This document shows, one piece after another, positions 27,257-38,508 of a stretch of 64,000 bases of DNA (the stretch's first letter is position 1; each line of letters starts with the position of its first letter). Source of the stretch: Gemmatimonadota bacterium. Its GTDB lineage: Bacteria > Latescibacterota > UBA2968 > UBA8231. Location: positions 17,255 through 81,254 of the forward strand of contig JAYPJE010000015.1 in the NCBI GenBank assembly GCA_038128265.1, given 5' to 3'. The notes beneath the pieces were generated by a model that saw only the letters and a list, made by a program, of their open reading frames with translations, did not search any database and was not told the DNA's origin. The position numbers were made by a program, and so were the translations under genes.

Positions 27257-27399
27257 GAAACAGGCCCGGTCAGTAATTAAAGAGCAGAACAATATGAAAT
27301 AATATGAATTATGTTGTTAGTACACAAGTATTTACTAATGTGTGAAAAGGATGCGCGGAACCGGTTTACATCTGGCGCATCGACCTAGTGGGAGCGATG

Positions 27400-27428
27400 T
27401 TTACAAGGATAATGGCGTTTGTTATTAT
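27400..27428 (+). promoter_or_regulatory. Sigma-70-type promoter upstream of the lepB-proteasome gene run
   Basis: TTTACA-17 nt-TATTAT about 30 nt before the lepB ATG. Confidence 0.6.
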
Positions 27429-27458
27429 ATCCGCACGTCGCGATGTCAAAGGAGATCT

Positions 27459-28163
27459 ATGGACGCCAAGAATCGCAAATCGAGCATCGGGGAGTATGTT
27501 TCGTCTATCCTCGTTGCCGTGGGGTTGGCACTGCTTATTCGCACGGCGGTGGTGCAGGCCTTCTACATTCCCTCTGGCTCTATGGAAGACACGCTCCTGG
27601 TCGGCGATTATCTACTTGCCAATAAATTTGTCTACGGAGCGCCTTTGGACGTGCCGGCAACCAATATAACCCTCTTTCGCCTGCCGGCGATACGCGACCC
27701 ACAACCCGGTGATATTGTTATTTTTCGCTCTCCGGTCGATTCCGACCGCGATCTCATCAAGCGCTGCGTTGCCGTAGGAGGGCAGACGGTCGAAATCGTC
27801 AACAAGACGCTTTATGTCGACGGCCAGCCCTTCGCCGATCCGCCGCTAACCAAATACACCGATCGCGCAGTCTATTCGGCCGCTTTCAATCCGCGCGATA
27901 ACTTCGGTCCTTTTGCCGTGCCCGAGGGGCACTTTTTCATGATGGGGGACAACCGCGATAACAGCGCCGATAGCCGCTACTGGCGTTCCGTGCCCAAGGA
28001 TTTGATTAAGGGCAAGGCGATGAGTATATACTGGTCGTGGGCGCCCGACACGGGGGGGCCGTACTACAGCGGTCCCGCGTCGCTGCCCAGGGTATTGGCC
28101 AGCTGGATTGGGCGCCTGCCGAGCCGCGTGCGCTACGAGCGCTTGGGCGACGTCATTCGCTAG
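27459..28163 (+). CDS. lepB: Signal peptidase I
   Basis: One TM segment, then IPSGSMEDTL..GD, IKRC, MMGDNRDNSADSR; AAGGAG RBS. Confidence 0.96.
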   Translation: MDAKNRKSSIGEYVSSILVAVGLALLIRTAVVQAFYIPSGSMEDTLLVGDYLLANKFVYGAPLDVPATNITLFRLPAIRDPQPGDIVIFRSPVDSDRDLIKRCVAVGGQTVEIVNKTLYVDGQPFADPPLTKYTDRAVYSAAFNPRDNFGPFAVPEGHFFMMGDNRDNSADSRYWRSVPKDLIKGKAMSIYWSWAPDTGGPYYSGPASLPRVLASWIGRLPSRVRYERLGDVIR

Positions 28164-28173
28164 GACGGAGAGC

Positions 28174-29898
28174 ATGAATAGGCGAAATAGCAGAGACCGA
28201 GACGACGACTACGATTACGACGACTACGACGAGCGCGAAGTCGGTCAGGCCGAAGACGGCGACGAGCCGCTGCGCTTGGTGGACCAGCTCTTGACAATGG
28301 CTGCCGACCGCGATCCGGCGCGTCCGCTGCTCTACCAGCTGCGGCGCCAGTTGATGGAGCGCGAGATTTCCTTTCAGGAGGCCCGGCGCTCTCTTGTCGA
28401 GATGGAAGCGGCGCTGGAAAAGGTCACGGCACCGGCCAACCGGATCGGCATTTTTCTCAATTCGCCCAAAGAAGGTATCGCCAACGTATTCGTCAGCGGC
28501 TCCGAGTACTATGCCAATATCGATCCGCGCGTCGACGCAGAGCGCCTGCGCGCCGGCTGCCGGGTGCTGATCAATGAAGCCTATGCGGTGGTGGGCGATT
28601 TGGGCTACAGCCCGAGCGGCCCGGTCGCCAAAATAGGCGATGTGCTCGAAGGGGGGCGGTTGCGCCTGTCGCAGGCACACGGAACGCAGGAGATCGTGCT
28701 GGAGCGCGGCGCCGAACTGCAGGATATCGATTTGAAGGTGGGCGACGAGGTGCGCGTCGATCCAGCTTTTAAAGTGGCCTTGGAACGACTGCAGTCGTCC
28801 GAGAGCAAGGAGTACTTTATCGAAGACGTGCCGCCGACGCCCTGGGACAGCATTGGCGGTCAGCAGGAGGCCATCCAGGCCATCCGCGATACTATTGAGC
28901 TGCCGGCCCTGCACCCCGAACTGTTCGAGCGCTTTCAGTACAGCACGCCCAAGGGGTTTTTGCTCTACGGTCCGCCCGGATGCGGCAAGACGCTGATCGG
29001 CAAAGCCACGGCCTACAACCTGGTCGAGCACATGCGTCGCGAAGAGGGCTTGGAGCTCGAAGAGTACTTCATGCACATCAAGGGGCCCGAGATCCTCAAT
29101 ATGTGGCTCGGCGAGACCGAGCGCATGGTGCGCGAAGTTTTTGCCCAGGCGCGGCAGAAGCGCAAGGAAGGCTACCTGCCCTTTGTCTTCATAGACGAGG
29201 CCGAATCCATTTTGGGCACGCGGCGTTCGATGCGCTCGCACAATATCTCCAATACCGTCGTGCCGATGTTCTGCACTGAGATGGACGGCATCGAGTCGCT
29301 GCACGACGTGGTCATTATTCTGGCTTCAAACCGCCACGACCTGATCGATCCGGCGATTTTGCGCCCCGGCCGCATCGACCGCAAAATAAAGGTCAACCGC
29401 CCCAACTACGAAGCGGCCAAGGCTATTTTCTCAATCTACCTGACGTCCTCTCTGCCGATCGATGCGGCGGAAGTGGCCGAGCACGGCGGCGAAGAGGCGG
29501 CGCGCGAAGCGCTTGTCCAGCAGGGCGTCGACGAGCTTTTTGCGCGCAGCGAGGAGACGCGTTTTCTCGAGGTTTCACTGCGCTCTGGGCGACAGGAAGT
29601 GCTCTATCGCAGCGACCTTTCCAGCGGGGCGATTATTGCGTCAGTGGTTCAGCGCGCCAAGGAGCTGGCCATCAAACGCGCCATTTCACAGCAGGAGGCC
29701 GGCGCGGGCGTCCGCGCGCAGGATCTGCGTGACGCCGTGCGGCACGAGTATCGCGAAAACGAGGTGTTTCCGCCGTCCGATAGCGTAGAGGATTGGCTCA
29801 AACTGCTCGACTACGAGCCGGAAAATGTGGTCAAGGTGACGCCGGTGCGCCCGCAGGTGGAAAAGGCGCAGGAGACGCGCGCCGGCAAGGTGATCTAG
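28174..29898 (+). CDS. arc: Proteasome-associated AAA+ ATPase (ARC/Mpa homologue)
   Basis: N-terminal coiled coil, Walker A GPPGCGKT, IKGPEILNMWLGETER, Walker B FIDEAE, NTVVP, DPAILRPGRIDRKI; position in the operon. Confidence 0.93.
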   Translation: MNRRNSRDRDDDYDYDDYDEREVGQAEDGDEPLRLVDQLLTMAADRDPARPLLYQLRRQLMEREISFQEARRSLVEMEAALEKVTAPANRIGIFLNSPKEGIANVFVSGSEYYANIDPRVDAERLRAGCRVLINEAYAVVGDLGYSPSGPVAKIGDVLEGGRLRLSQAHGTQEIVLERGAELQDIDLKVGDEVRVDPAFKVALERLQSSESKEYFIEDVPPTPWDSIGGQQEAIQAIRDTIELPALHPELFERFQYSTPKGFLLYGPPGCGKTLIGKATAYNLVEHMRREEGLELEEYFMHIKGPEILNMWLGETERMVREVFAQARQKRKEGYLPFVFIDEAESILGTRRSMRSHNISNTVVPMFCTEMDGIESLHDVVIILASNRHDLIDPAILRPGRIDRKIKVNRPNYEAAKAIFSIYLTSSLPIDAAEVAEHGGEEAAREALVQQGVDELFARSEETRFLEVSLRSGRQEVLYRSDLSSGAIIASVVQRAKELAIKRAISQQEAGAGVRAQDLRDAVRHEYRENEVFPPSDSVEDWLKLLDYEPENVVKVTPVRPQVEKAQETRAGKVI

Positions 29899-29901
29899 CG
29901 C

Positions 29902-31458
29902 ATGCTGCGACTGTGTGGGTTGGAAACGGAGTATGGAATCCAAGTCGACGATGTCGATCATATGGACGTCGTCGTCGAGTCGATGGAGCTAATCCGCTGC
30001 TACCTGCACGATGACTTCGTCGCGCGCTGGAACTACGCGCTGGAAAATCCTCGCCGCGATATGCGCGGTTTTGAAGTCGACGAGCTGCGCAACGACAAAG
30101 ACGAGATGGAGCACCTGCAGCAGGATCGCGCCCGCAAGATTCCGCTCAAGGATCTCAAGAGCGATCTGCTAATTCACAACGGGGCTCGCCTCTACAACGA
30201 TCACACGCACCCCGAGTTTTCCACCCCCGAGTGCTACGATTTATTTGGCCTGGTTGCCTTTGACCGCGCCGGTGAACGCATTCTGCTGGAGTGCGCCCAG
30301 CAGCGCACGGCGACGCGCGGCGGCGGCGTGGTGCGCCTTTACAAGAACAACACCGACTTTGACGGTCATAGCTACGGCACGCACGAAAACTTTCTCATTC
30401 GCCGCGATGTGCCTTTTGATCGGGTTATTGCCGCTCTGCTGCCCTTTATAGCCACGCGCCAGATTTACGCCGGCGCCGGCAAGGTGGGCGTTGAAGAAGA
30501 TGCGCGCGCCGATGGCGGCATATACCAGCTGGCGCAGCGCTCCGATTTTTTTGAGGTCATTACCAGCGTCGACACCATGCAGCGTCGGCCGCTGGTCAAC
30601 AGTCGCGACGAGCCGCACGCCGATCCGACGCACTGGCGCCGCCTGCACATGATCGTCGGCGACGCCAATATGTCGGAGTGGGCAACCGCGCTTAAGGTCG
30701 GCGCGCTGGGACTGGTGTTGGACCTGCTTGAAATGGACGCGGTGCCGGCGTGTGAGCTGGCCGATCCGGTGGGCGCGCTGAAGAGCGTTTCGCGCGACCA
30801 GACGCATCAGTGGCCCGTCGAACTGGCGGGCGGTGGGCACACGTCTGCGCTCGATATTCAGGCCACCTATTGGGAGGCGGCGCGCGAGCGGCTGCAGGGA
30901 CGCGACGGCGAGACGGACTGGGTGCTGGACGAGTGGCAGCGGGCTATTGAGGCGCTTGGCCGCGAACCGGGCGAGCTGCGTGGGCTGTGCGATTGGGTGA
31001 CAAAGAAGTGGCTGTTGGACGCCTTTGCCGAATCGGAAGGGTTGGACTGGAGTCGCCCCGACGATCGCGCCTGGCTGCAGAGCCAGGACTTGGAATATCA
31101 CAACGTCGACCCAGCCGAGGGGCTCTATCTGATGTTGGAGGAGAGCGGGCAGGTGTCGCAGCTGCTCAACGATGAAGAGGTGCGCCGCGCTATGGTGGTG
31201 CCGCCGGCGGATACGCGCGCCTACTTTCGCGGCGTGGCGCTGGAGAAGTTTTCCGCGCAGGTGCGCTCACTCAACTGGGATAGCATTGAGTTTGAGACGG
31301 CAGCGGGCAATGCGCACATCATCGATTTGAAAGGGTGTGTTGATGCGGCGTCGGCCGCATATTTTAACGCGGCGCTCGACGGAGCGAGCAGCGTCGAAGA
31401 GCTGGTGGAAAAACTGGCGGCCTGGCAGCCTCAGGACGCGTCGAAAGGAGAAGCGTGA
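29902..31458 (+). CDS. dop: Dop-like depupylase/deamidase
   Basis: GLETEYGI, Dop-type loop WNYALENPRRDMRGF, NGARLYNDHTHPEFSTPE, YKNNTD, SYGTHEN, RDEPHAD, DLEYH. Confidence 0.9.
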   Translation: MLRLCGLETEYGIQVDDVDHMDVVVESMELIRCYLHDDFVARWNYALENPRRDMRGFEVDELRNDKDEMEHLQQDRARKIPLKDLKSDLLIHNGARLYNDHTHPEFSTPECYDLFGLVAFDRAGERILLECAQQRTATRGGGVVRLYKNNTDFDGHSYGTHENFLIRRDVPFDRVIAALLPFIATRQIYAGAGKVGVEEDARADGGIYQLAQRSDFFEVITSVDTMQRRPLVNSRDEPHADPTHWRRLHMIVGDANMSEWATALKVGALGLVLDLLEMDAVPACELADPVGALKSVSRDQTHQWPVELAGGGHTSALDIQATYWEAARERLQGRDGETDWVLDEWQRAIEALGREPGELRGLCDWVTKKWLLDAFAESEGLDWSRPDDRAWLQSQDLEYHNVDPAEGLYLMLEESGQVSQLLNDEEVRRAMVVPPADTRAYFRGVALEKFSAQVRSLNWDSIEFETAAGNAHIIDLKGCVDAASAAYFNAALDGASSVEELVEKLAAWQPQDASKGEA

Positions 31459-31649
31459 TGAATGCTTTTGAACTGCGCGATCGCATACCGCGTCCCGTTA
31501 AGCCGATGGACGATGGTGGAGGCGAAGGAGATGAGGGGCCGCGCCGCCCAAAAGTCGAAAAACCCGGCGGGGGCGACGACATACTCAAGCGCATGAAGCG
31601 GGTCGATCCAAACCAGGCGCGGCGCTATCGCCAGCGCACGGGTGAATAG
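31458..31649 (+). CDS. ubact: UBact (Pup-analogous ubiquitin-like modifier), 63 aa
   Basis: Small low-complexity protein between dop and prcB ending ARRYRQRTGE (R[ST]G[EQ] signature); AAAGGAG RBS; ATG overlaps the dop TGA. Confidence 0.92.
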   Translation: MNAFELRDRIPRPVKPMDDGGGEGDEGPRRPKVEKPGGGDDILKRMKRVDPNQARRYRQRTGE

Positions 31650-31657
31650 GCGCATCG

Positions 31658-32425
31658 ATGGAAAGCTGTGACTTTCTCGATCTGCTGCGCGAAGGGGGGC
31701 ACCTGCCTGAGGTTGCCTCCATCGGGCAGGGCGAGCGGCCTTTTGAGGATACGGAAGGGACGACTATCCTTGCCGTGCGCTATCGCGACGGCGTGCTTGT
31801 AGCGGGCGACCGTCGGGCGACCATGGGCAACCTGGTTGTCTATGATCGCGCTGATAAGGTGCTGAGTATCGATGACGACTCGGTAATGGCCATTTCGGGC
31901 TCGCCGGCCATCGCCTACGAAATAGCGCGCATGTTGGAGATGTCCATACAGTACTACAGGCGCAGTCAGCTGCAAACGCTCAGCCTCGACGGCAAGCTGC
32001 GGACGCTCTCGCGGCTGCTGCGACAGAACTTGCCGATGGCCATGCAGGGAGTCGGCGCGGTAATCCCGATCTATGCGGCCTTTGACGAGCGCGATGCGAC
32101 GGGCAAAATATTTTTCTACGACCTGCTTGGCGCGACGTTTGAGAGCGTCGATTTTTGCACCACGGGATCGGGGTCGCACATTATTCGCGGTGCGCTCTAC
32201 TACCTGAATCGGTGGGGCGATACGCCCTTGGCGGAGATGGACGAGAACGCCGCGCTGGAACTCGTTGTCAAAATGTTGGAGACGGCGGCCGAGTACGATA
32301 CGGCCACCGGCGGTTATCGCCAGAGTGCGCGTATTTACCCAACGGTTATGCGGGTCAGCGCCAACGGCATTCACTGCGTGGAAGAGGGCGAATTGGAAGC
32401 GATCTTCCAGGGACGGATGGCTTAG
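31658..32425 (+). CDS. prcB: 20S proteasome beta subunit
   Basis: 34-aa propeptide ending in G, then TTILAVRYRDGVLVAGDRRATMG (Thr1 nucleophile); TTGSGS; DTATGG. Confidence 0.93.
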   Translation: MESCDFLDLLREGGHLPEVASIGQGERPFEDTEGTTILAVRYRDGVLVAGDRRATMGNLVVYDRADKVLSIDDDSVMAISGSPAIAYEIARMLEMSIQYYRRSQLQTLSLDGKLRTLSRLLRQNLPMAMQGVGAVIPIYAAFDERDATGKIFFYDLLGATFESVDFCTTGSGSHIIRGALYYLNRWGDTPLAEMDENAALELVVKMLETAAEYDTATGGYRQSARIYPTVMRVSANGIHCVEEGELEAIFQGRMA

Positions 32426-33187
32426 ATGTTAGAGGAACCTTATCGCTGGGTCGAGGCCATGCGCAACCGGCGCGACTACCTAGATGACCAACTGCGCGGC
32501 GCTTCGCCGGTAGTGGCTACGCGCTACGAGAACGGCGTTCTGCTGCTGACAACAACGCCGGGACCGCGCAAAGTATTTGAGGTATACAACGAAATTGCCT
32601 TTGCCGCCATCGGCCACCCCGCCGATATCGAGAAGCTGCGCAAGGCCGTTATCGATATCGCTCATTTAGAGGGTTTTAATCTCTCGGCGAGCGATGTCAA
32701 CTTGCAGCGCTTGGTAAGCTTTGGAATCGGTCCGCTTGTTAAAGGGGCGTTTGATGAAATTTTTCGCTCGCCTTTCTTGGCGCGCGTGCTGCTGGCCGAA
32801 CTGGATCCACCCAGCGGCGACGATGTGTTTTACACCATTGATGCAGACGGGTCGTTTGTGCGCGCTGGCCACGCAGCTGCTGTCGGCAGCGAGGAGAGCG
32901 TAGAGGCCATCGTCGATGCGCTGAGTGAACACCCGCCCGAAGCGGGATTGGATGCCGCCCTAGGAGCTGCGCTCAACGCGTGGGCACGAGGTCGTATGGC
33001 TATGGACCGCGAAGAGGGAGAAGACCAGCCCGGCGAAGGGGACGTCGACGCCTTCCTGCGCGAGGCGCTAGTCGACCTCAAAGTAGAAGCGGCCGTGCTC
33101 GATCGCAGTGTATCAACCAAGTCGAAGTTTCGCCTGTTGGGCGACGACGACTTGAGGACCGTGCTGAGCGCATATCGCGGGGCGTGA
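32426..33187 (+). CDS. prcA: 20S proteasome alpha subunit
   Basis: EPY..., PRKVFEVYNEIAFAAIG, EAAVLDRS, KFRL; directly follows prcB. Confidence 0.88.
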   Translation: MLEEPYRWVEAMRNRRDYLDDQLRGASPVVATRYENGVLLLTTTPGPRKVFEVYNEIAFAAIGHPADIEKLRKAVIDIAHLEGFNLSASDVNLQRLVSFGIGPLVKGAFDEIFRSPFLARVLLAELDPPSGDDVFYTIDADGSFVRAGHAAAVGSEESVEAIVDALSEHPPEAGLDAALGAALNAWARGRMAMDREEGEDQPGEGDVDAFLREALVDLKVEAAVLDRSVSTKSKFRLLGDDDLRTVLSAYRGA

Positions 33188-33189
33188 CC

Positions 33190-34611
33190 ATGAAGGATCG
33201 CATCTTTGGGCTAGAGACAGAGTACGGCTGCTTGCCGCCGGATACCGAGCCCTTCCTGAGTCCAGACTACATATCGGTCAAAACCAAAGACTGCCTGTTT
33301 TTTCGCGAGGGGTTGGGTCTCGTCGACATGCATTACCGCGGCCGCGACGAGCCGCCGGGCAACGGCGGCTTTCTCTTTAACGGCGGCAGGCTCTACATCG
33401 ACATGGGACACGTCGAATACGCTACCCCCGAATGTTCCGGCCTCTTCGACCTAGTGGCCGCTGATCGCGCCGGCGAAGTTATGGTGCAGCGCGCGCTCGA
33501 TCACCTCGATAGCAGCGGCCGCGCCTCCTTTATAAAGAACAACATAGACCACTATACGGGGGCGACCTTCGGCTGCCACGAGAACTATTTGGTGCGTCGT
33601 GAAGTGCCCTTTTCCCAGGTGTTGCTGCCGGCTATGCTGCCGTTTTTCGTCACGCGGCAAATCTTTGCCGGGGCCGGTCGCGTTGGCTGCCATACGGATA
33701 TCTTTGAGTCGGGTGTCGAGCCAGACCAGAGCGTCACGTACCAAATTTCGCAGCGCGCCGACCATATCGTCACGGAAATCTACCAGTGGATACAGTTTAG
33801 CCGCGCCATTATCAATACGCGCGACGAGCCGCTGGCCGATTGGGGGCAGTTTCGCCGTTTGCATCTTCTGGTTGGCGATTCGAATATGTCGGAGTACGCT
33901 ACGGCGCTCAAGGTGGGCACTACGGGTCTGGTGCTGCAGCTCCTAGAGGAGCGCATCGTGCCAGAAATGGGTTTGCTCAACGCCGTGGACGCCATACGCG
34001 ATATTTCGCGCGACGTCAGCTGCACGTGGGAAATCCAGCTAGAAGACGGTCGCTATACGACGGCCATTGACGTGCAGCGCCACTATTTGGATTTGGCAGA
34101 GCGGTATCTGCGCGGGCGCGAAGAGGAGACCGACTGGGTCCTGGACGAGTGGCGCTTTGTGCTGGACGGCCTGCTGCACGATCCGGGCGCGCTGATTGAT
34201 CGCGTCGACTGGATTGCCAAGAAGTCGCTGTTGGAGCAGTTTATGGAAGCCGAGGGCATCGACTGGCACGATCCGTGGTTGCAGAGCTTGGATTTGGAAT
34301 ACCACAATTTGAATCCCAGCAAGGGCCTGTATTTTGATCTGCTCCGGCGCGGCCGCATGAAGCGCGTGGTAGACGAGGAGCGCGTCAACAATGCCATCGC
34401 CAATCCGCCGGCCGACACGCGCGCTTGGGCGCGCTCGCACGTCATGCGCGCGCTGACCGAAATGAAGGCGCGCTACGTCGTCGACTGGGATTCGATTTAC
34501 GTTGAGGACGATCGATATCTCAACATAGATGATCCATTTTGCCTGTACGAATCGGACGCGGATGAATTTATCGAAGAGCTCGGTGCAGATGGCGATGATG
34601 AAGAAGAATGA
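33190..34611 (+). CDS. pafA: PafA-like Pup/UBact-protein ligase
   Basis: RIFGLETEYG, NGGRLYID, GCHENYL, ISQRADHI, SRAIINTRDEP, RRLHLLVGDSNMSE, DLEYH; start placed at ATG 33190. Confidence 0.9.
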   Translation: MKDRIFGLETEYGCLPPDTEPFLSPDYISVKTKDCLFFREGLGLVDMHYRGRDEPPGNGGFLFNGGRLYIDMGHVEYATPECSGLFDLVAADRAGEVMVQRALDHLDSSGRASFIKNNIDHYTGATFGCHENYLVRREVPFSQVLLPAMLPFFVTRQIFAGAGRVGCHTDIFESGVEPDQSVTYQISQRADHIVTEIYQWIQFSRAIINTRDEPLADWGQFRRLHLLVGDSNMSEYATALKVGTTGLVLQLLEERIVPEMGLLNAVDAIRDISRDVSCTWEIQLEDGRYTTAIDVQRHYLDLAERYLRGREEETDWVLDEWRFVLDGLLHDPGALIDRVDWIAKKSLLEQFMEAEGIDWHDPWLQSLDLEYHNLNPSKGLYFDLLRRGRMKRVVDEERVNNAIANPPADTRAWARSHVMRALTEMKARYVVDWDSIYVEDDRYLNIDDPFCLYESDADEFIEELGADGDDEEE

Positions 34612-34688: not shown

Positions 34689-35144
34689 ATGTTCGCTTCA
34701 GCCAACGCTGCGGTTGGCGGCGTGTTTACGGTTCCGCTCAAGGCGCGTAACCAGATGCGCGTGCCGACGCAGGGCGCGCGCGTGCGCGATGGGTTGGGCA
34801 TCGCCCCCCTGCGCGCTACAGGTGGATCGCCCGGGTCGCTGCAAAAGCCCATGGCCGCGCGCAGTAGTTTAGTGACGCCGCCCGCTTCTGGTGGAGGCAT
34901 CCTTTCGCAGATGCAGGGCCAAGTGCGCAGCGTGAGTCCGCTCACCGCGGGCGTGCGCAGTGCGCATCGCGCCAAGCCGGGCATGTCAGCCGGCGTGCTG
35001 CAGGCGCGGCAAACCGGTCTGCTGGAGCGTATGCGCCGCGCCGATAGCGGCAGTCGCGTGCTGCAGGCGGGTGCCAATCCACTGCGCAACGGAGGCGGTT
35101 TTGGCTTCAAATCCGCTATCAGCAGCATCAATCTTCTCGGATAA
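34689..35144 (+). CDS. Hypothetical highly basic, low-complexity protein (151 aa)
   Basis: AAGGAG RBS 8 nt before ATG; fills the gap between pafA and the protease gene; no recognisable domain. Confidence 0.65.
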   Translation: MFASANAAVGGVFTVPLKARNQMRVPTQGARVRDGLGIAPLRATGGSPGSLQKPMAARSSLVTPPASGGGILSQMQGQVRSVSPLTAGVRSAHRAKPGMSAGVLQARQTGLLERMRRADSGSRVLQAGANPLRNGGGFGFKSAISSINLLG

Positions 35145-35160
35145 GTCGCCGCTGTCCACA

Positions 35161-38100
35161 TTGTACCTATCCCACTTTCTGCGCATTTCTTTCACCTTAT
35201 GGGCGCTTGCCGGCACGGTTTCGGCGAGCGCTTTTGAGTGTGCACTACCCACCCCAGCCGGTAAGCGGCTGCAGGTGGGCAATAGCCTGAGTGCGCTGGT
35301 CATTTTTGCCCAATTTGCAGGACAGGGCGCTGGCTCATCGGCTCCCTCTTGGTCGGCAGACCTGTTTAACCCCTCCGTTCCCGGAAGTTTTACCCATTTC
35401 TACAACGATATGTCGGGCGGGCTGCTGCAGGTGCGTGGTCGCGTCCTGCCCAAGCGCTACAGCGCGCTGGATACTGCCGATGCCTATGTTGCGGCTGAAG
35501 GGGGCGGAGTGGGTCAGTATGGCCTCTTTAACTTGCAGGTGCTGCGCCAGGCTGATGCCGATAGCGACTTTGGAGAATTTGATAACGACGGTCCAGACGG
35601 CGTGCCCAATTCAGGTGATGATGATGGCTATGTCGACATCGTATTTATCAATCTGCACACGGTGCCGCGCGGTTTTTTTATTGGTTCGGCGACGGGACTA
35701 GCCTCGCTGGGATTGGATGCCGACTACATCAGCAATGACGCGGCGGCGGGCGGGGGCTTCGTGCGCGTGCGCAGCCGCTTTAACGGCTTTGGCGGCACGA
35801 CGCAGCGCGGTCATACGTTCAGCGTTACGGCTTCTACAATGTGTCACGAATTTGGCCACGTGCTTGGATTGACCGACTTATTTGATCAGAGCTCGCTCTC
35901 GGCGGCGGGCGAGTTGGATCCGGAGCAAGATTCTGCTGGCATCGGCAAGTGGGGGCTCATGGGATTGGGCACGTTGGGATGGGGCGTTGAAGATGGTCCC
36001 AACGCGTTTAGCGGGCCGACGCTGGCCGAGTTGGGATGGGTCGAGGTCGACGTGTTGGATAAAGCCGCTGCGGGACTCTCTCTCGAAGAAGTCTTTACCG
36101 GGCGCCGGCTGCTGAAAATTCCCGTGAGTCGCTACGAGTACTTTCTACTCGAATATCGACGAGCGGCCGGCTCGTACTACAATCGAAATATTCCGCAGGA
36201 CGGCCTGTTGCTGTGGCATGTCGACGAGCGGGCCGACAACGACGAGGAGCGCCATAAGCGCATCGATCTGGTATGTGCCGATGGGCTCTTTGCCGACAGA
36301 GGGGCGCCGTCGACCGCAGCGGATCCATACGCTGGCCGGGACAACCTCGATTTCTGGTCGCGCGATGCGGCCTATGCCAGTGAGTACAACGGCAACCAGG
36401 GCGACGCGGGCGACCCCTTTGACGGCGTGCGCTATCGGCGCATCGCTTGGGATACCAACCCCGCCCTGCGCGCCCATAGTGGGTCAACGCGCGGCGTCGA
36501 GTTGGCCTGGGCTCTGGAAAATATGCGGCCAGAGGGCAACCAGATGCGCTTTGACTTTGCCGGCACAGCGCGCGAAGGCCATATCGTGGGTCAGGTGCGC
36601 TGGGAGGGAGACGTTCAGCTGAACGGCGACGTAGTCGTGCAGCCCGGTGCGCGCCTAGTGCTAGCCGATGGCGTGCGCGTTGCGCTGGCGCGCGGCGATG
36701 CGCGCGGGGCTGGATTTGATCCGGACCGCAGCGAGCTGATCGTCTATGGCGAAGTGGTGCAGGAGGGAACGGCCGCTTTTCGCTCTTCAGCGGCGACGCC
36801 GGGTGCGCTCGATTGGTCGGGTATTTTTCTGATGGACGGCCAGGCATTGGACGAGGGGGCGCTGAGCGTAGAAAATGCGCGTTTTGGCGTCGTGCGCTTT
36901 CGCCTGCCTCCAGGACAGACGACCTGGAGCGGCGACGTTTCCGTGCGCGGCGACCTACTCGTGCCGGTCGACGCCAAGCTGGTAGTCGAACCGGGGACGC
37001 AGCTGTTTTTTTCCGAAAGCGATATCGCCGTTAACGGCGTGTCGCCCAGCTACGTCGAGCTGGTGGTGGAGGGTGCGTTGGAGGCTCGTGGGCAGATTGA
37101 CGCGCCGCTGCGCTTTACGACGGCACCGAACCCGCAAGACGACCAACTATGGTATGGGGTGCGCCTGCTGCCATCGGCGCGCACGGACGTCGCGTTTGCC
37201 CAGTTTGACCATGTGGGCTTCGCCTTTAGCGGCGAGATTGGCCGAAATGGATCGCTGCGCGTGGCTGATGCGGTCCTGCGCGATGCGGCCGGCGGTGGCG
37301 CCAGCGTGACGCTGGTCGGTGAAGCCGGTTTTGAGCGCACGCTGTTTACGCGCATTACCGGACCGGCGCTGCGCGTTGATGGCAGCGGGCAGGTGACGCT
37401 GCGCCAGGCGCGCATTGTCGGCAACGGCCAGGAGGGCATCGTGCTCAATAACGCCTCGCTGCTGGCACTGGACGTAGAAATCACCAACAACGGTTTGTTG
37501 GATGGAGAAGACCCGCGCTCGGGTCTGCGCGCCGTCGGCGGTGGGGGACAGAAAATCGAGCTGTGGAACGCGACGGTTGAACGCAATAGCAAGCACGGAA
37601 TTGAATTGGTGGACTGGCTTGGGGAAGTGGAACTATACGATTCCTTTGTCAACGCGAACTATCGCGATGGCCTGCGCGCCGGTCGGCTCAAAAAGTTGGT
37701 GTTTGAGCAGGTTGACGTGCAGCGCAATCTGGGTGGAGGTGTCGCCGTTGACAGCGCCTACGTAGAGCTGTGGACCAGTTATGTGCTGGGCAATGTCGGC
37801 GACGCACTCTACCTGGGACCCGGCAGCACGGGAGCCATTGAAATGGGACACTTCGGCGGCGGGCCGGGCACCGTGCTCGATCGGGTGGGAACGCTTTTTG
37901 TGCGCACCAGCACGTTTGAACGCGCTCCCGTTGGATTGCGCCTGATCGACGGCGATCCCGTGCTGGAAAAAAATCGTCTGATCGGCAATGCCGTGGCTCT
38001 CCGCATCGAGGGCACTCGCGTGCCGTCGGTCGTGCGCAGTAATGCGTTTCTCGATAACGCTACGGCGGTTGAAAATCTGACGAACCGGGCGCTGCAGGCG

Positions 38101-38508
38101 GCGGGGAACTACTGGGGCACTACGGATAGCACGGCCATTGCCGGACTCATGTGGGGCCGAGTTGATTTTTCCGGTTTCCTCGCAGAAGAGCCCGATCCGA
38201 CGGCGGTCGAACAAGTGCAGGAAGTTCCTTTGCGCTTTGCGTTGGGACTGGGCTATCCCAATCCCTTCAATGCCGCTGTCGCCATTCCCTTTGAACTCGG
38301 TGAAGCGGTGCATGCCAAACTGTCTGTATACGACGCGCTAGGTCGCAGGGTGCGCACGCTCGTTGACGCGGCAATGGCCGGCGGAACACACAGCGCCCAT
38401 TGGGACGGACGCGATGAGCGGGGGGGCGAGGCAGCTTCCGGCCCGTATTTTTATCGCCTGCAGGCCGGCGACTTTGCCGCTCAGGGCCGCGTATTGCTGC
38501 TGCGCTAG
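35161..38508 (+). CDS. Secreted M6 (immune inhibitor A-like) metalloprotease with beta-helix repeats and C-terminal FlgD-Ig/sorting domain
   Basis: HEFGHVLGLTDL, WGLMG, EYFLLEYR, GLLLWHVD; C-terminal YPNPFN...YDALGRRVRTL...WDGRD...SGPYFYRL; start inferred at TTG 35161 (signal-like). Confidence 0.85.
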   Translation: MYLSHFLRISFTLWALAGTVSASAFECALPTPAGKRLQVGNSLSALVIFAQFAGQGAGSSAPSWSADLFNPSVPGSFTHFYNDMSGGLLQVRGRVLPKRYSALDTADAYVAAEGGGVGQYGLFNLQVLRQADADSDFGEFDNDGPDGVPNSGDDDGYVDIVFINLHTVPRGFFIGSATGLASLGLDADYISNDAAAGGGFVRVRSRFNGFGGTTQRGHTFSVTASTMCHEFGHVLGLTDLFDQSSLSAAGELDPEQDSAGIGKWGLMGLGTLGWGVEDGPNAFSGPTLAELGWVEVDVLDKAAAGLSLEEVFTGRRLLKIPVSRYEYFLLEYRRAAGSYYNRNIPQDGLLLWHVDERADNDEERHKRIDLVCADGLFADRGAPSTAADPYAGRDNLDFWSRDAAYASEYNGNQGDAGDPFDGVRYRRIAWDTNPALRAHSGSTRGVELAWALENMRPEGNQMRFDFAGTAREGHIVGQVRWEGDVQLNGDVVVQPGARLVLADGVRVALARGDARGAGFDPDRSELIVYGEVVQEGTAAFRSSAATPGALDWSGIFLMDGQALDEGALSVENARFGVVRFRLPPGQTTWSGDVSVRGDLLVPVDAKLVVEPGTQLFFSESDIAVNGVSPSYVELVVEGALEARGQIDAPLRFTTAPNPQDDQLWYGVRLLPSARTDVAFAQFDHVGFAFSGEIGRNGSLRVADAVLRDAAGGGASVTLVGEAGFERTLFTRITGPALRVDGSGQVTLRQARIVGNGQEGIVLNNASLLALDVEITNNGLLDGEDPRSGLRAVGGGGQKIELWNATVERNSKHGIELVDWLGEVELYDSFVNANYRDGLRAGRLKKLVFEQVDVQRNLGGGVAVDSAYVELWTSYVLGNVGDALYLGPGSTGAIEMGHFGGGPGTVLDRVGTLFVRTSTFERAPVGLRLIDGDPVLEKNRLIGNAVALRIEGTRVPSVVRSNAFLDNATAVENLTNRALQAAGNYWGTTDSTAIAGLMWGRVDFSGFLAEEPDPTAVEQVQEVPLRFALGLGYPNPFNAAVAIPFELGEAVHAKLSVYDALGRRVRTLVDAAMAGGTHSAHWDGRDERGGEAASGPYFYRLQAGDFAAQGRVLLLR

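Follow-up and report, generated by a model that had tools for sequence, protein, structure and literature searches.

Architecture of the UBact-proteasome locus

The window analyzed here is a stretch of 64,000 nucleotides from a genome of the phylum Latescibacterota (assembly GCA_038128265.1, contig JAYPJE010000015.1, positions 17,255 to 81,254). Translation of the window reveals six consecutive genes on the + strand (28174–34611), which encode the proteasomal ATPase ARC, a Dop-like protein, the protein tag UBact, the proteasome subunits PrcB and PrcA, and a PafA-like protein. Together they make up a genuine UBact-proteasome locus, which is intact and of an ordinary, known type. The charge of its tag, and the partner surfaces that may answer to it, are the subject of this analysis. 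UBact-proteasome clusters of Gram-negative phyla were reportedly first described by Lehmann and colleagues in 2017, and to our knowledge UBact systems have been described from genome sequences only.

The tag gene (31458–31649; 63 residues from its ATG, with an alternative GTG at 31455) matches PF20513 with an E-value of 2e-19 and lies above both curated cut-offs, scoring 69.3 bits with PF20513 (cut-off 27.8) and 76.7 bits with NF033388 (cut-off 35). Situated between the Dop-like gene and prcB, it encodes a protein ending in RYRQRTGE, which fits the pattern ...YRQR[TS]G[EQ]. The first gene of the operon (28174–29898) codes for an ARC/Mpa-like proteasomal AAA ATPase of the UBact type with 574 residues, recognized by the Pfam families AAA and Prot_ATP_ID_OB_N/C. 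As in Mpa/ARC, a coiled coil at the N-terminus and two OB domains precede the AAA module according to Pfam and AlphaFold2, and the protein can be aligned with Mpa of M. tuberculosis (7px9) from residue 66 onward. Directly 5' of the tag gene lies the gene for a Dop-like deamidase/depupylase homologue of 518 residues (29902–31458; Pfam Pup_ligase, E 2e-151). Downstream follow the proteasome beta subunit PrcB (31658–32425) and alpha subunit PrcA (32426–33187), both matched by the Pfam family Proteasome, and a PafA-like ligase homologue of 473 residues (33190–34611; Pfam Pup_ligase, PF03136, E 8e-142), of which residues 4–464 match PafA in PDB entries 4b0t/4bjr. The two Pup_ligase paralogues were assigned to Dop and PafA by best model, alignment coverage, length and gene position. 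All five non-tag proteins score below the actinobacterial equivalog cut-offs: ARC reaches 474.5 bits with TIGR03689 (cut-off 504.75), the Dop-like protein 434.9 bits with TIGR03688 (Dop), its best NCBIfam match (492.3), the PafA-like protein 372.8 bits in a full-length match to TIGR03686 (551.3), PrcB 180.4 bits with TIGR03690 (191.9) and PrcA 73.7 bits with TIGR03691 (139). They thus appear to form a sister set and not to belong to the Pup-type equivalogs.

UBact is present in 128 of the 168 genomes of the window's phylum, and the gene order is the same in the 35 loci fetched from it, one of which (L031) is cut by a contig end. The order ARC-Dop-UBact-PrcB-PrcA-PafA is likewise found in UBact clusters of Nitrospirota, Poribacteria, Armatimonadota, Nitrospinota and Verrucomicrobiota, and UBact clusters elsewhere share with the window the basic C-terminal motif ending in R[TS]G[EQ]. 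From these clusters the window differs only in a very acidic N-terminal extension of ARC, common to its family and Poribacteria, and in a poly-acidic tail of PafA, common to its genus. Pup-proteasome systems of Actinobacteria and some Nitrospirota resemble the window in their six components and the order of these, in a disordered tag of about 63–70 residues ending in G[EQ], in the Pup_ligase paralogues and in an AAA ATPase that has a double OB domain.

The C-terminal module of UBact is charge-inverted relative to Pup

The last 24 residues of UBact, DDILKRMKRVDPNQARRYRQRTGE (31575–31646), contain eight K/R and four D/E, giving a net charge of +4. Translation thereby reproduces the count given in a preliminary description of this DNA, which also held the charge of the tag to be opposite to that of Pup. 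In the family alignment, the last 24 residues carry +4 to +6 in 79/79 UBact sequences from the window's phylum and at least six others; two further copies outside this set have +3 and +7. The corresponding segment of true Pup, taken from Nitrospirota genomes by matches to PF05639 at E-values of about 1e-20, carries −4 to −7 in 24/24 sequences. The inversion is genuine, but it is a trait of the known UBact family and not of the window.

A comparison of the two tags by hhalign was not significant (probability 0.2%, E 0.29). The best local pairing places DDILKRMKRV of UBact on DKLVDEIDDV of Pup, with equal hydrophobic spacing and K/R in place of D/E. Since the alignment is not significant, this positional inversion of charge on an amphipathic helix is a suggestive pattern and not demonstrated homology. 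PF05639 found no match in the window's genome, and the window's basic tag ends in TGE, whereas the acidic C-terminal half of Pup ends in GG[EQ]. A search of PDB sequences with UBact gave no match at E-values up to 10. The prolines of UBact are nearly invariant, and the longest proline-free stretch within its last 40 residues measures 13 residues in 69/79 sequences. On the coiled coil of Mpa, Pup folds into one helix some 30 residues long (PMC8755798). The conserved prolines rule out such a helix in UBact, so that the geometry of the interface probably differs as well; judged from the sequences, ARC is unlikely to read UBact in a manner that mirrors Pup on Mpa.

The C-terminal residue of UBact is Glu in 52/79 and Gln in 27/79 sequences, with Glu in the window copy. 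Pup shows the same dimorphism, which implies that the Dop-like enzyme of some lineages acts as a deamidase.

Acidic extensions of ARC and PafA

At its N-terminus ARC carries an acidic, Tyr-rich extension (residues 8–31, DRDDDYDYDDYDEREVGQAEDGDE; 28195–28266), in which 14 of 24 residues are D/E and two are K/R. The last 20 residues of the PafA-like protein, ESDADEFIEELGADGDDEEE (34549–34608), include 12 D/E and no K/R and have a net charge of −12. Both segments had been reported in the preliminary description, which was right about their composition; its account was confined to positions 28174–31649, outside of which the PafA tail lies. With the composition of the six locus proteins as reference (D+E 17.5%, K+R 11.3%), the ARC segment has a binomial tail of 8e-6, the PafA tail one of 3e-5 and the UBact module one of 4e-3, and hence the charge biases are real and not due to chance. 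All proteins of the locus except UBact are net acidic.

The reading frame of ARC starts with an ATG behind GGAG, and close relatives hold the extension in frame despite changes in its length, which leave the composition intact. An AlphaFold2 model of ARC residues 1–150, based on 69 sequences, gives a pLDDT (predicted local distance difference test) below 50 at residues 6–11 and 13–26, and the acidic extension is accordingly predicted to be disordered. Two confident helices follow, spanning residues 28–42 and 50–85, before the OB domain begins. The first, termed helix a0 (28255–28299; pLDDT about 88), has the core LRLVDQLL; its residue L33 is nearly invariant across the 69 sequences and the motif recurs across phyla. 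The second is a short coiled-coil helix (28321–28428), itself neutral with six basic and six acidic residues (net 0).

According to the preliminary description, the ARC extension and the PafA tail recognize the basic UBact tag, mirroring the docking of acidic Pup on a basic coiled coil of Mpa and making the tagging code orthogonal to Pup. The premise of a basic coiled coil was not borne out by the Pup-type ARCs obtained. From 150 cluster representatives retrieved by a search with a Pup-type ARC, 19 were used, which were full-length, ended in xY[LFV] and had a recognizable coiled-coil/OB junction; 12 further representatives were dropped because the junction pattern was not present. In the 19 sequences, the 50 residues immediately preceding the OB domain have a median net charge of 0 (range −5 to +8) and the part in front of them a median of −1 (range −6 to +2). 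Charge is likewise balanced in the stretch of M. tuberculosis Mpa covered by the PDB alignment (from residue 76); a PDB search with ARC residues 1–109 found no Mpa chain. Pup-type ARCs furthermore lack the helix a0 motif present in UBact-type ARCs, and their helical N-domain is longer than the 36-residue coiled-coil helix and helix a0 of the UBact type.

The distribution of the acidic segments among UBact systems bears directly on their proposed role as receptor. Defined as the segment from the start to helix a0, the N-extension was scored in 61 UBact-type ARCs, four others being left out since the helix pattern failed (three of these are from Verrucomicrobiota and have Lys- and Pro-rich extensions). 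Its net charge is −5 or lower in 23/61, −4 to −1 in 30/61, and zero or above in 8/61. The 23 strongly acidic extensions comprise 17/21 of the window's family, termed f1, 5/5 of Poribacteria and 1/13 of Nitrospirota. In other families of Latescibacterota the extension is near neutral (−1 to −3) and contains the conserved motif PDDFLQDYVDM, and in Nitrospinota just seven residues precede helix a0. For the PafA tail the distribution is narrower still. Within the phylum, a net charge of −5 or lower occurs in 4/35 loci (the window, two of its genus and L037), and +2 or higher in 12/35; tails comparable to that of the window are found only in L032 (−10), L033 (−6) and L037 (−6). In loci of other phyla the respective counts are 0/34 and 6/34, with tails of other lineages ranging from −4 to +8 and those of Poribacteria from +4 to +8. 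Overall, the tail is acidic in 4/69 loci and basic in 18/69, which argues against a recognition surface. Although UBact changes little, most UBact lineages besides f1 and Poribacteria have a near-neutral or basic ARC extension or none at all; as a receptor for the tag, the acidic segments thus fail through their absence from orthologues. Recognition by the tails would nevertheless agree with charges that are real and opposite in sign, and with the recurrence of acidic ARC extensions in f1 and Poribacteria. On balance, including the evidence from Nitrospirota given below, we consider it quite improbable.

A different role of the tails, as regulatory or docking elements apart from tag recognition, could take the form of an autoinhibitory pseudo-substrate at the ARC pore or of a contact between ARC and the ligase. 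In families f2–f4 of Latescibacterota the acidic-aromatic PDDFLQDYVDM motif is conserved in ARC and the PafA tail is basic (+2 to +6); in Poribacteria the ARC extension carries −9 to −14 and the PafA tail +4 to +8. Such an arrangement would suit an ARC-PafA contact. In the window, however, both tails are acidic and fit poorly to a mutual contact, and PDDFLQDYVDM is without a Pfam match. We regard such a role as unlikely. Basic PafA tails (+2 to +8) alongside an acidic ARC extension or PDDFLQDYVDM were noted in the Latescibacterota loci L047–L061 (f3/f4) and in the Poribacteria loci L091, L100, L106, L111 and L115; this pairing may be a sign that ARC and PafA touch each other. A likeness of PDDFLQDYVDM to the C-terminus of Pup was a visual impression and was dismissed, as the Pfam Pup model found no match in ARC N-termini at E-values up to 10.

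The tails could also represent functionless low-complexity drift in disordered termini, possibly tracking a generally acidic proteome. Their sequence and length vary freely even inside the window's family, the region is predicted to be disordered, and the net acidity of every locus protein but UBact would fit such a background. Against drift, the acidic bias persists across family f1, arises independently in Poribacteria and is kept through in-frame length changes, and we regard this explanation as distinctly unlikely. A complex prediction with two copies of ARC 1–150 and UBact, run with alignments and without controls, scored 0.01 against a mark of 0.32, and nothing was concluded from it.

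Acidity of the folded Dop and PafA cores

In order to compare the folded parts of the proteins, net charge per 100 residues was calculated over aligned cores without starts and tails. The Dop core carries −5.0 in UBact-type systems (n = 81) and −2.1 in Pup-type systems (n = 11), the PafA core −5.3 (n = 71) and −2.1 (n = 10), respectively. UBact-type Dop and PafA cores are therefore about three charges per 100 residues more acidic than their Pup-type counterparts. The corresponding values are −3.6 and −2.2 for the ARC core, −2.4 and −1.5 for PrcB, and −4.5 and −1.8 for PrcA.

Three Nitrospirota genomes (G514, G357 and G494) contain one complete Pup-type and one complete UBact-type locus each, so that these pairs control for the background composition of the cell. 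Given as Pup-type/UBact-type, the core values are −2.2/−5.6 for Dop, −2.2/−5.7 for PafA and −3.0/−1.6 for ARC in G514, −3.5/−6.1, −1.6/−4.6 and −3.4/−3.4 in G357, and −2.9/−6.4, −2.0/−6.5 and −3.6/−2.3 in G494. Alignment columns with type-specific charge point in the same direction: in UBact-type proteins, 27 columns of PafA lean to acidic and 16 to basic, and 23 and 10 columns of Dop do so, whereas ARC is balanced with 32 of each. Some changes occur in parallel in both paralogues, namely PafA355/Dop379 (K to E), PafA337/Dop361 (R to D/G) and PafA370/Dop398 (Q to E, window numbering). Charge-changed positions of the window's proteins include E355, D337, E370, E196 and D456 in PafA and E379, D339, D403 and D481 in Dop. 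In PafA, residues of a positive rim bind acidic surfaces of substrates, as Block and colleagues show (2023, PMC10465538).

These comparisons suggest that complementary acidity, if it exists, would be located in folded Dop and PafA, and judged from the sequences the acidic tails would not be what separates UBact from Pup. Several points weigh against this reading. The charge-changed columns are defined by alignment position, and they may or may not line the Pup-binding groove. A somewhat greater acidity is also seen in UBact-type PrcA and PrcB, neither of which is known to be a binding partner of the tag; a general drift of the operon may thus account for some of the shift. The Pup-type comparators consist of 11 Nitrospirota loci from few lineages, none of them actinobacterial and with related genomes that are not independent, and of the 19 ARC representatives classed by C-terminal motif alone. 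A search for Pup-type ARC homologues returned, among 120 listed proteins, only Nitrospira proteins of at least 86% identity and no actinobacterial comparator, and a contig scan with the Dop alignment gave no actinobacterial locus among its 80 loci. Finally, 53/61 ARC N-extensions lie below zero, though mostly mildly, and strong acidity in two unrelated groups, family f1 and Poribacteria, hints at selection maintaining it.

The expectation that a basic tag is met by acidic surfaces is retained for Dop and PafA, which are more acidic in UBact systems, and abandoned for the tails, which are not conserved. The earlier interpretation is in this sense partly supported, in spirit and not in its specifics.

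Coexistence of Pup and UBact in Nitrospirota

Among 401 sampled Nitrospirota genomes, of which related ones are not independent, Pup is present in 168 and UBact in 114; 105 genomes have both, nine UBact alone and 63 Pup alone. Two full systems in one genome make mutual insulation plausible, and coexistence implies that discrimination is needed somewhere. To this extent the proposed orthogonality to Pup is plausible. The part assigned to ARC is not supported, since the net charge of the ARC N-domain in the paired loci is similar (Pup-type/UBact-type: −3/−3 in G514, −1/−3 in G357, +1/−1 in G494). Recognition by acidic tails is thus weakened from two sides: in the three paired genomes, where insulation would matter, the N-domain of ARC is not acidic, and the window's phylum, which has the most acidic extension, yielded Pup in 0/168 genomes, so that the window's lineage has no second tag from which to be insulated.

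The two types of ARC also differ at the C-terminus. The window's ARC ends in KVI and is not of the HY[LF] type; UBact-type ARCs end in [VIL][VIL] in 68/70 cases, with a penultimate Y/F in 0/70, in contrast to HY[LF] in 11/11 Pup-type ARCs, where the penultimate Tyr belongs to the motif for docking on the 20S core. This difference suggests different docking on the alpha ring of the 20S core. Conceivably, although we hold this as a tentative and rather doubtful proposal, Pup and UBact could be two electrostatically insulated codes in one cell, with complete copies of both systems kept by many Nitrospirota. More and less acidic grooves of the ligase and de-tagging enzymes would read a charge-inverted helix (LLKRMRRV versus LVDEIDDV), each ARC would dock to its own proteasome by a different C-terminal motif, and lineages with UBact only would have gained acidic tails as optional antennae capturing the tag.

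In most of the Nitrospirota examined, the Pup gene is unlinked from its machinery: around 18/20 Pup loci, a distance of about 10 kb contains no gene for ARC, Dop or PafA. In Pup-type Nitrospirota loci, dop is directly followed by prcB, with no tag gene in between.

Variant loci and neighboring genes

Many loci of Chthoniobacterales and relatives (L070–L099) show ARC and a Dop-like gene or a Dop-like gene alone, and no UBact, proteasome or PafA gene was detected in the fetched flanks of many of these verrucomicrobial loci. One locus of Nitrospinaceae (L120) shows the unusual order ARC, Dop, PrcB, PrcA, UBact, second PrcB, PafA. In L001 (G038:C69:7179-7576), two UBact matches about 150 bases apart on one strand suggest a tandem pair of tag genes. 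In the window, the translation of the upstream neighbor of the operon (27342–28163) reads by eye like a signal peptidase I, and an open reading frame of 1182 residues lies downstream (34960–38508).

Proposed mode of tag recognition and its implications

A literature search outside of which the original UBact description lay returned no biochemical or structural study of UBact and none on recognition of the tag; nor did it return a paper on the charge of UBact or on coexistence with Pup, which may be in print. PMC11354881 mentions UBact in passing only, and the searched text of PMC7203096 holds no mention of it. Iyer and colleagues (2008, PMC2588565) had already listed Pup-like tags with a G[EQ] end from bacteria other than Actinobacteria.

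From gene identities, charge statistics and conservation patterns we infer the following binding and catalytic steps. UBact would be a disordered tag, whose conserved last 24 residues form two short, proline-bounded segments that are amphipathic and basic and end in G-E. PafA most likely ligates the terminal Glu of UBact to lysines of the substrate; Dop would take the tag off, or deamidate forms ending in Q; and ARC would pass tagged proteins into the 20S core. The basic module is most likely matched by the Dop and PafA cores, with about 14 more negative charges than the Pup type. On ARC, the likely docking site is formed by the conserved helix a0 together with the short coiled coil, and the acidic ARC extension and PafA tail may contribute at most a non-specific electrostatic steering of the basic tag. 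Taken together, we consider it reasonably probable that this is a standard UBact-proteasome operon in which folded Dop and PafA match the basic tag and the acidic tails are disordered, lineage-specific appendages and not a conserved receptor.

An attractive but wrong lead, the acidic tails as receptor, is thereby removed, and testable ones take its place: the charge-changed positions common to Dop and PafA, and the UBact-specific helix a0 of ARC. The natural coexistence of Pup and UBact in Nitrospirota offers a setting for direct tests of cross-reactivity. Should the insulation of the two codes be real, a single bacterial cell would run two ubiquitin-like degradation pathways in parallel.

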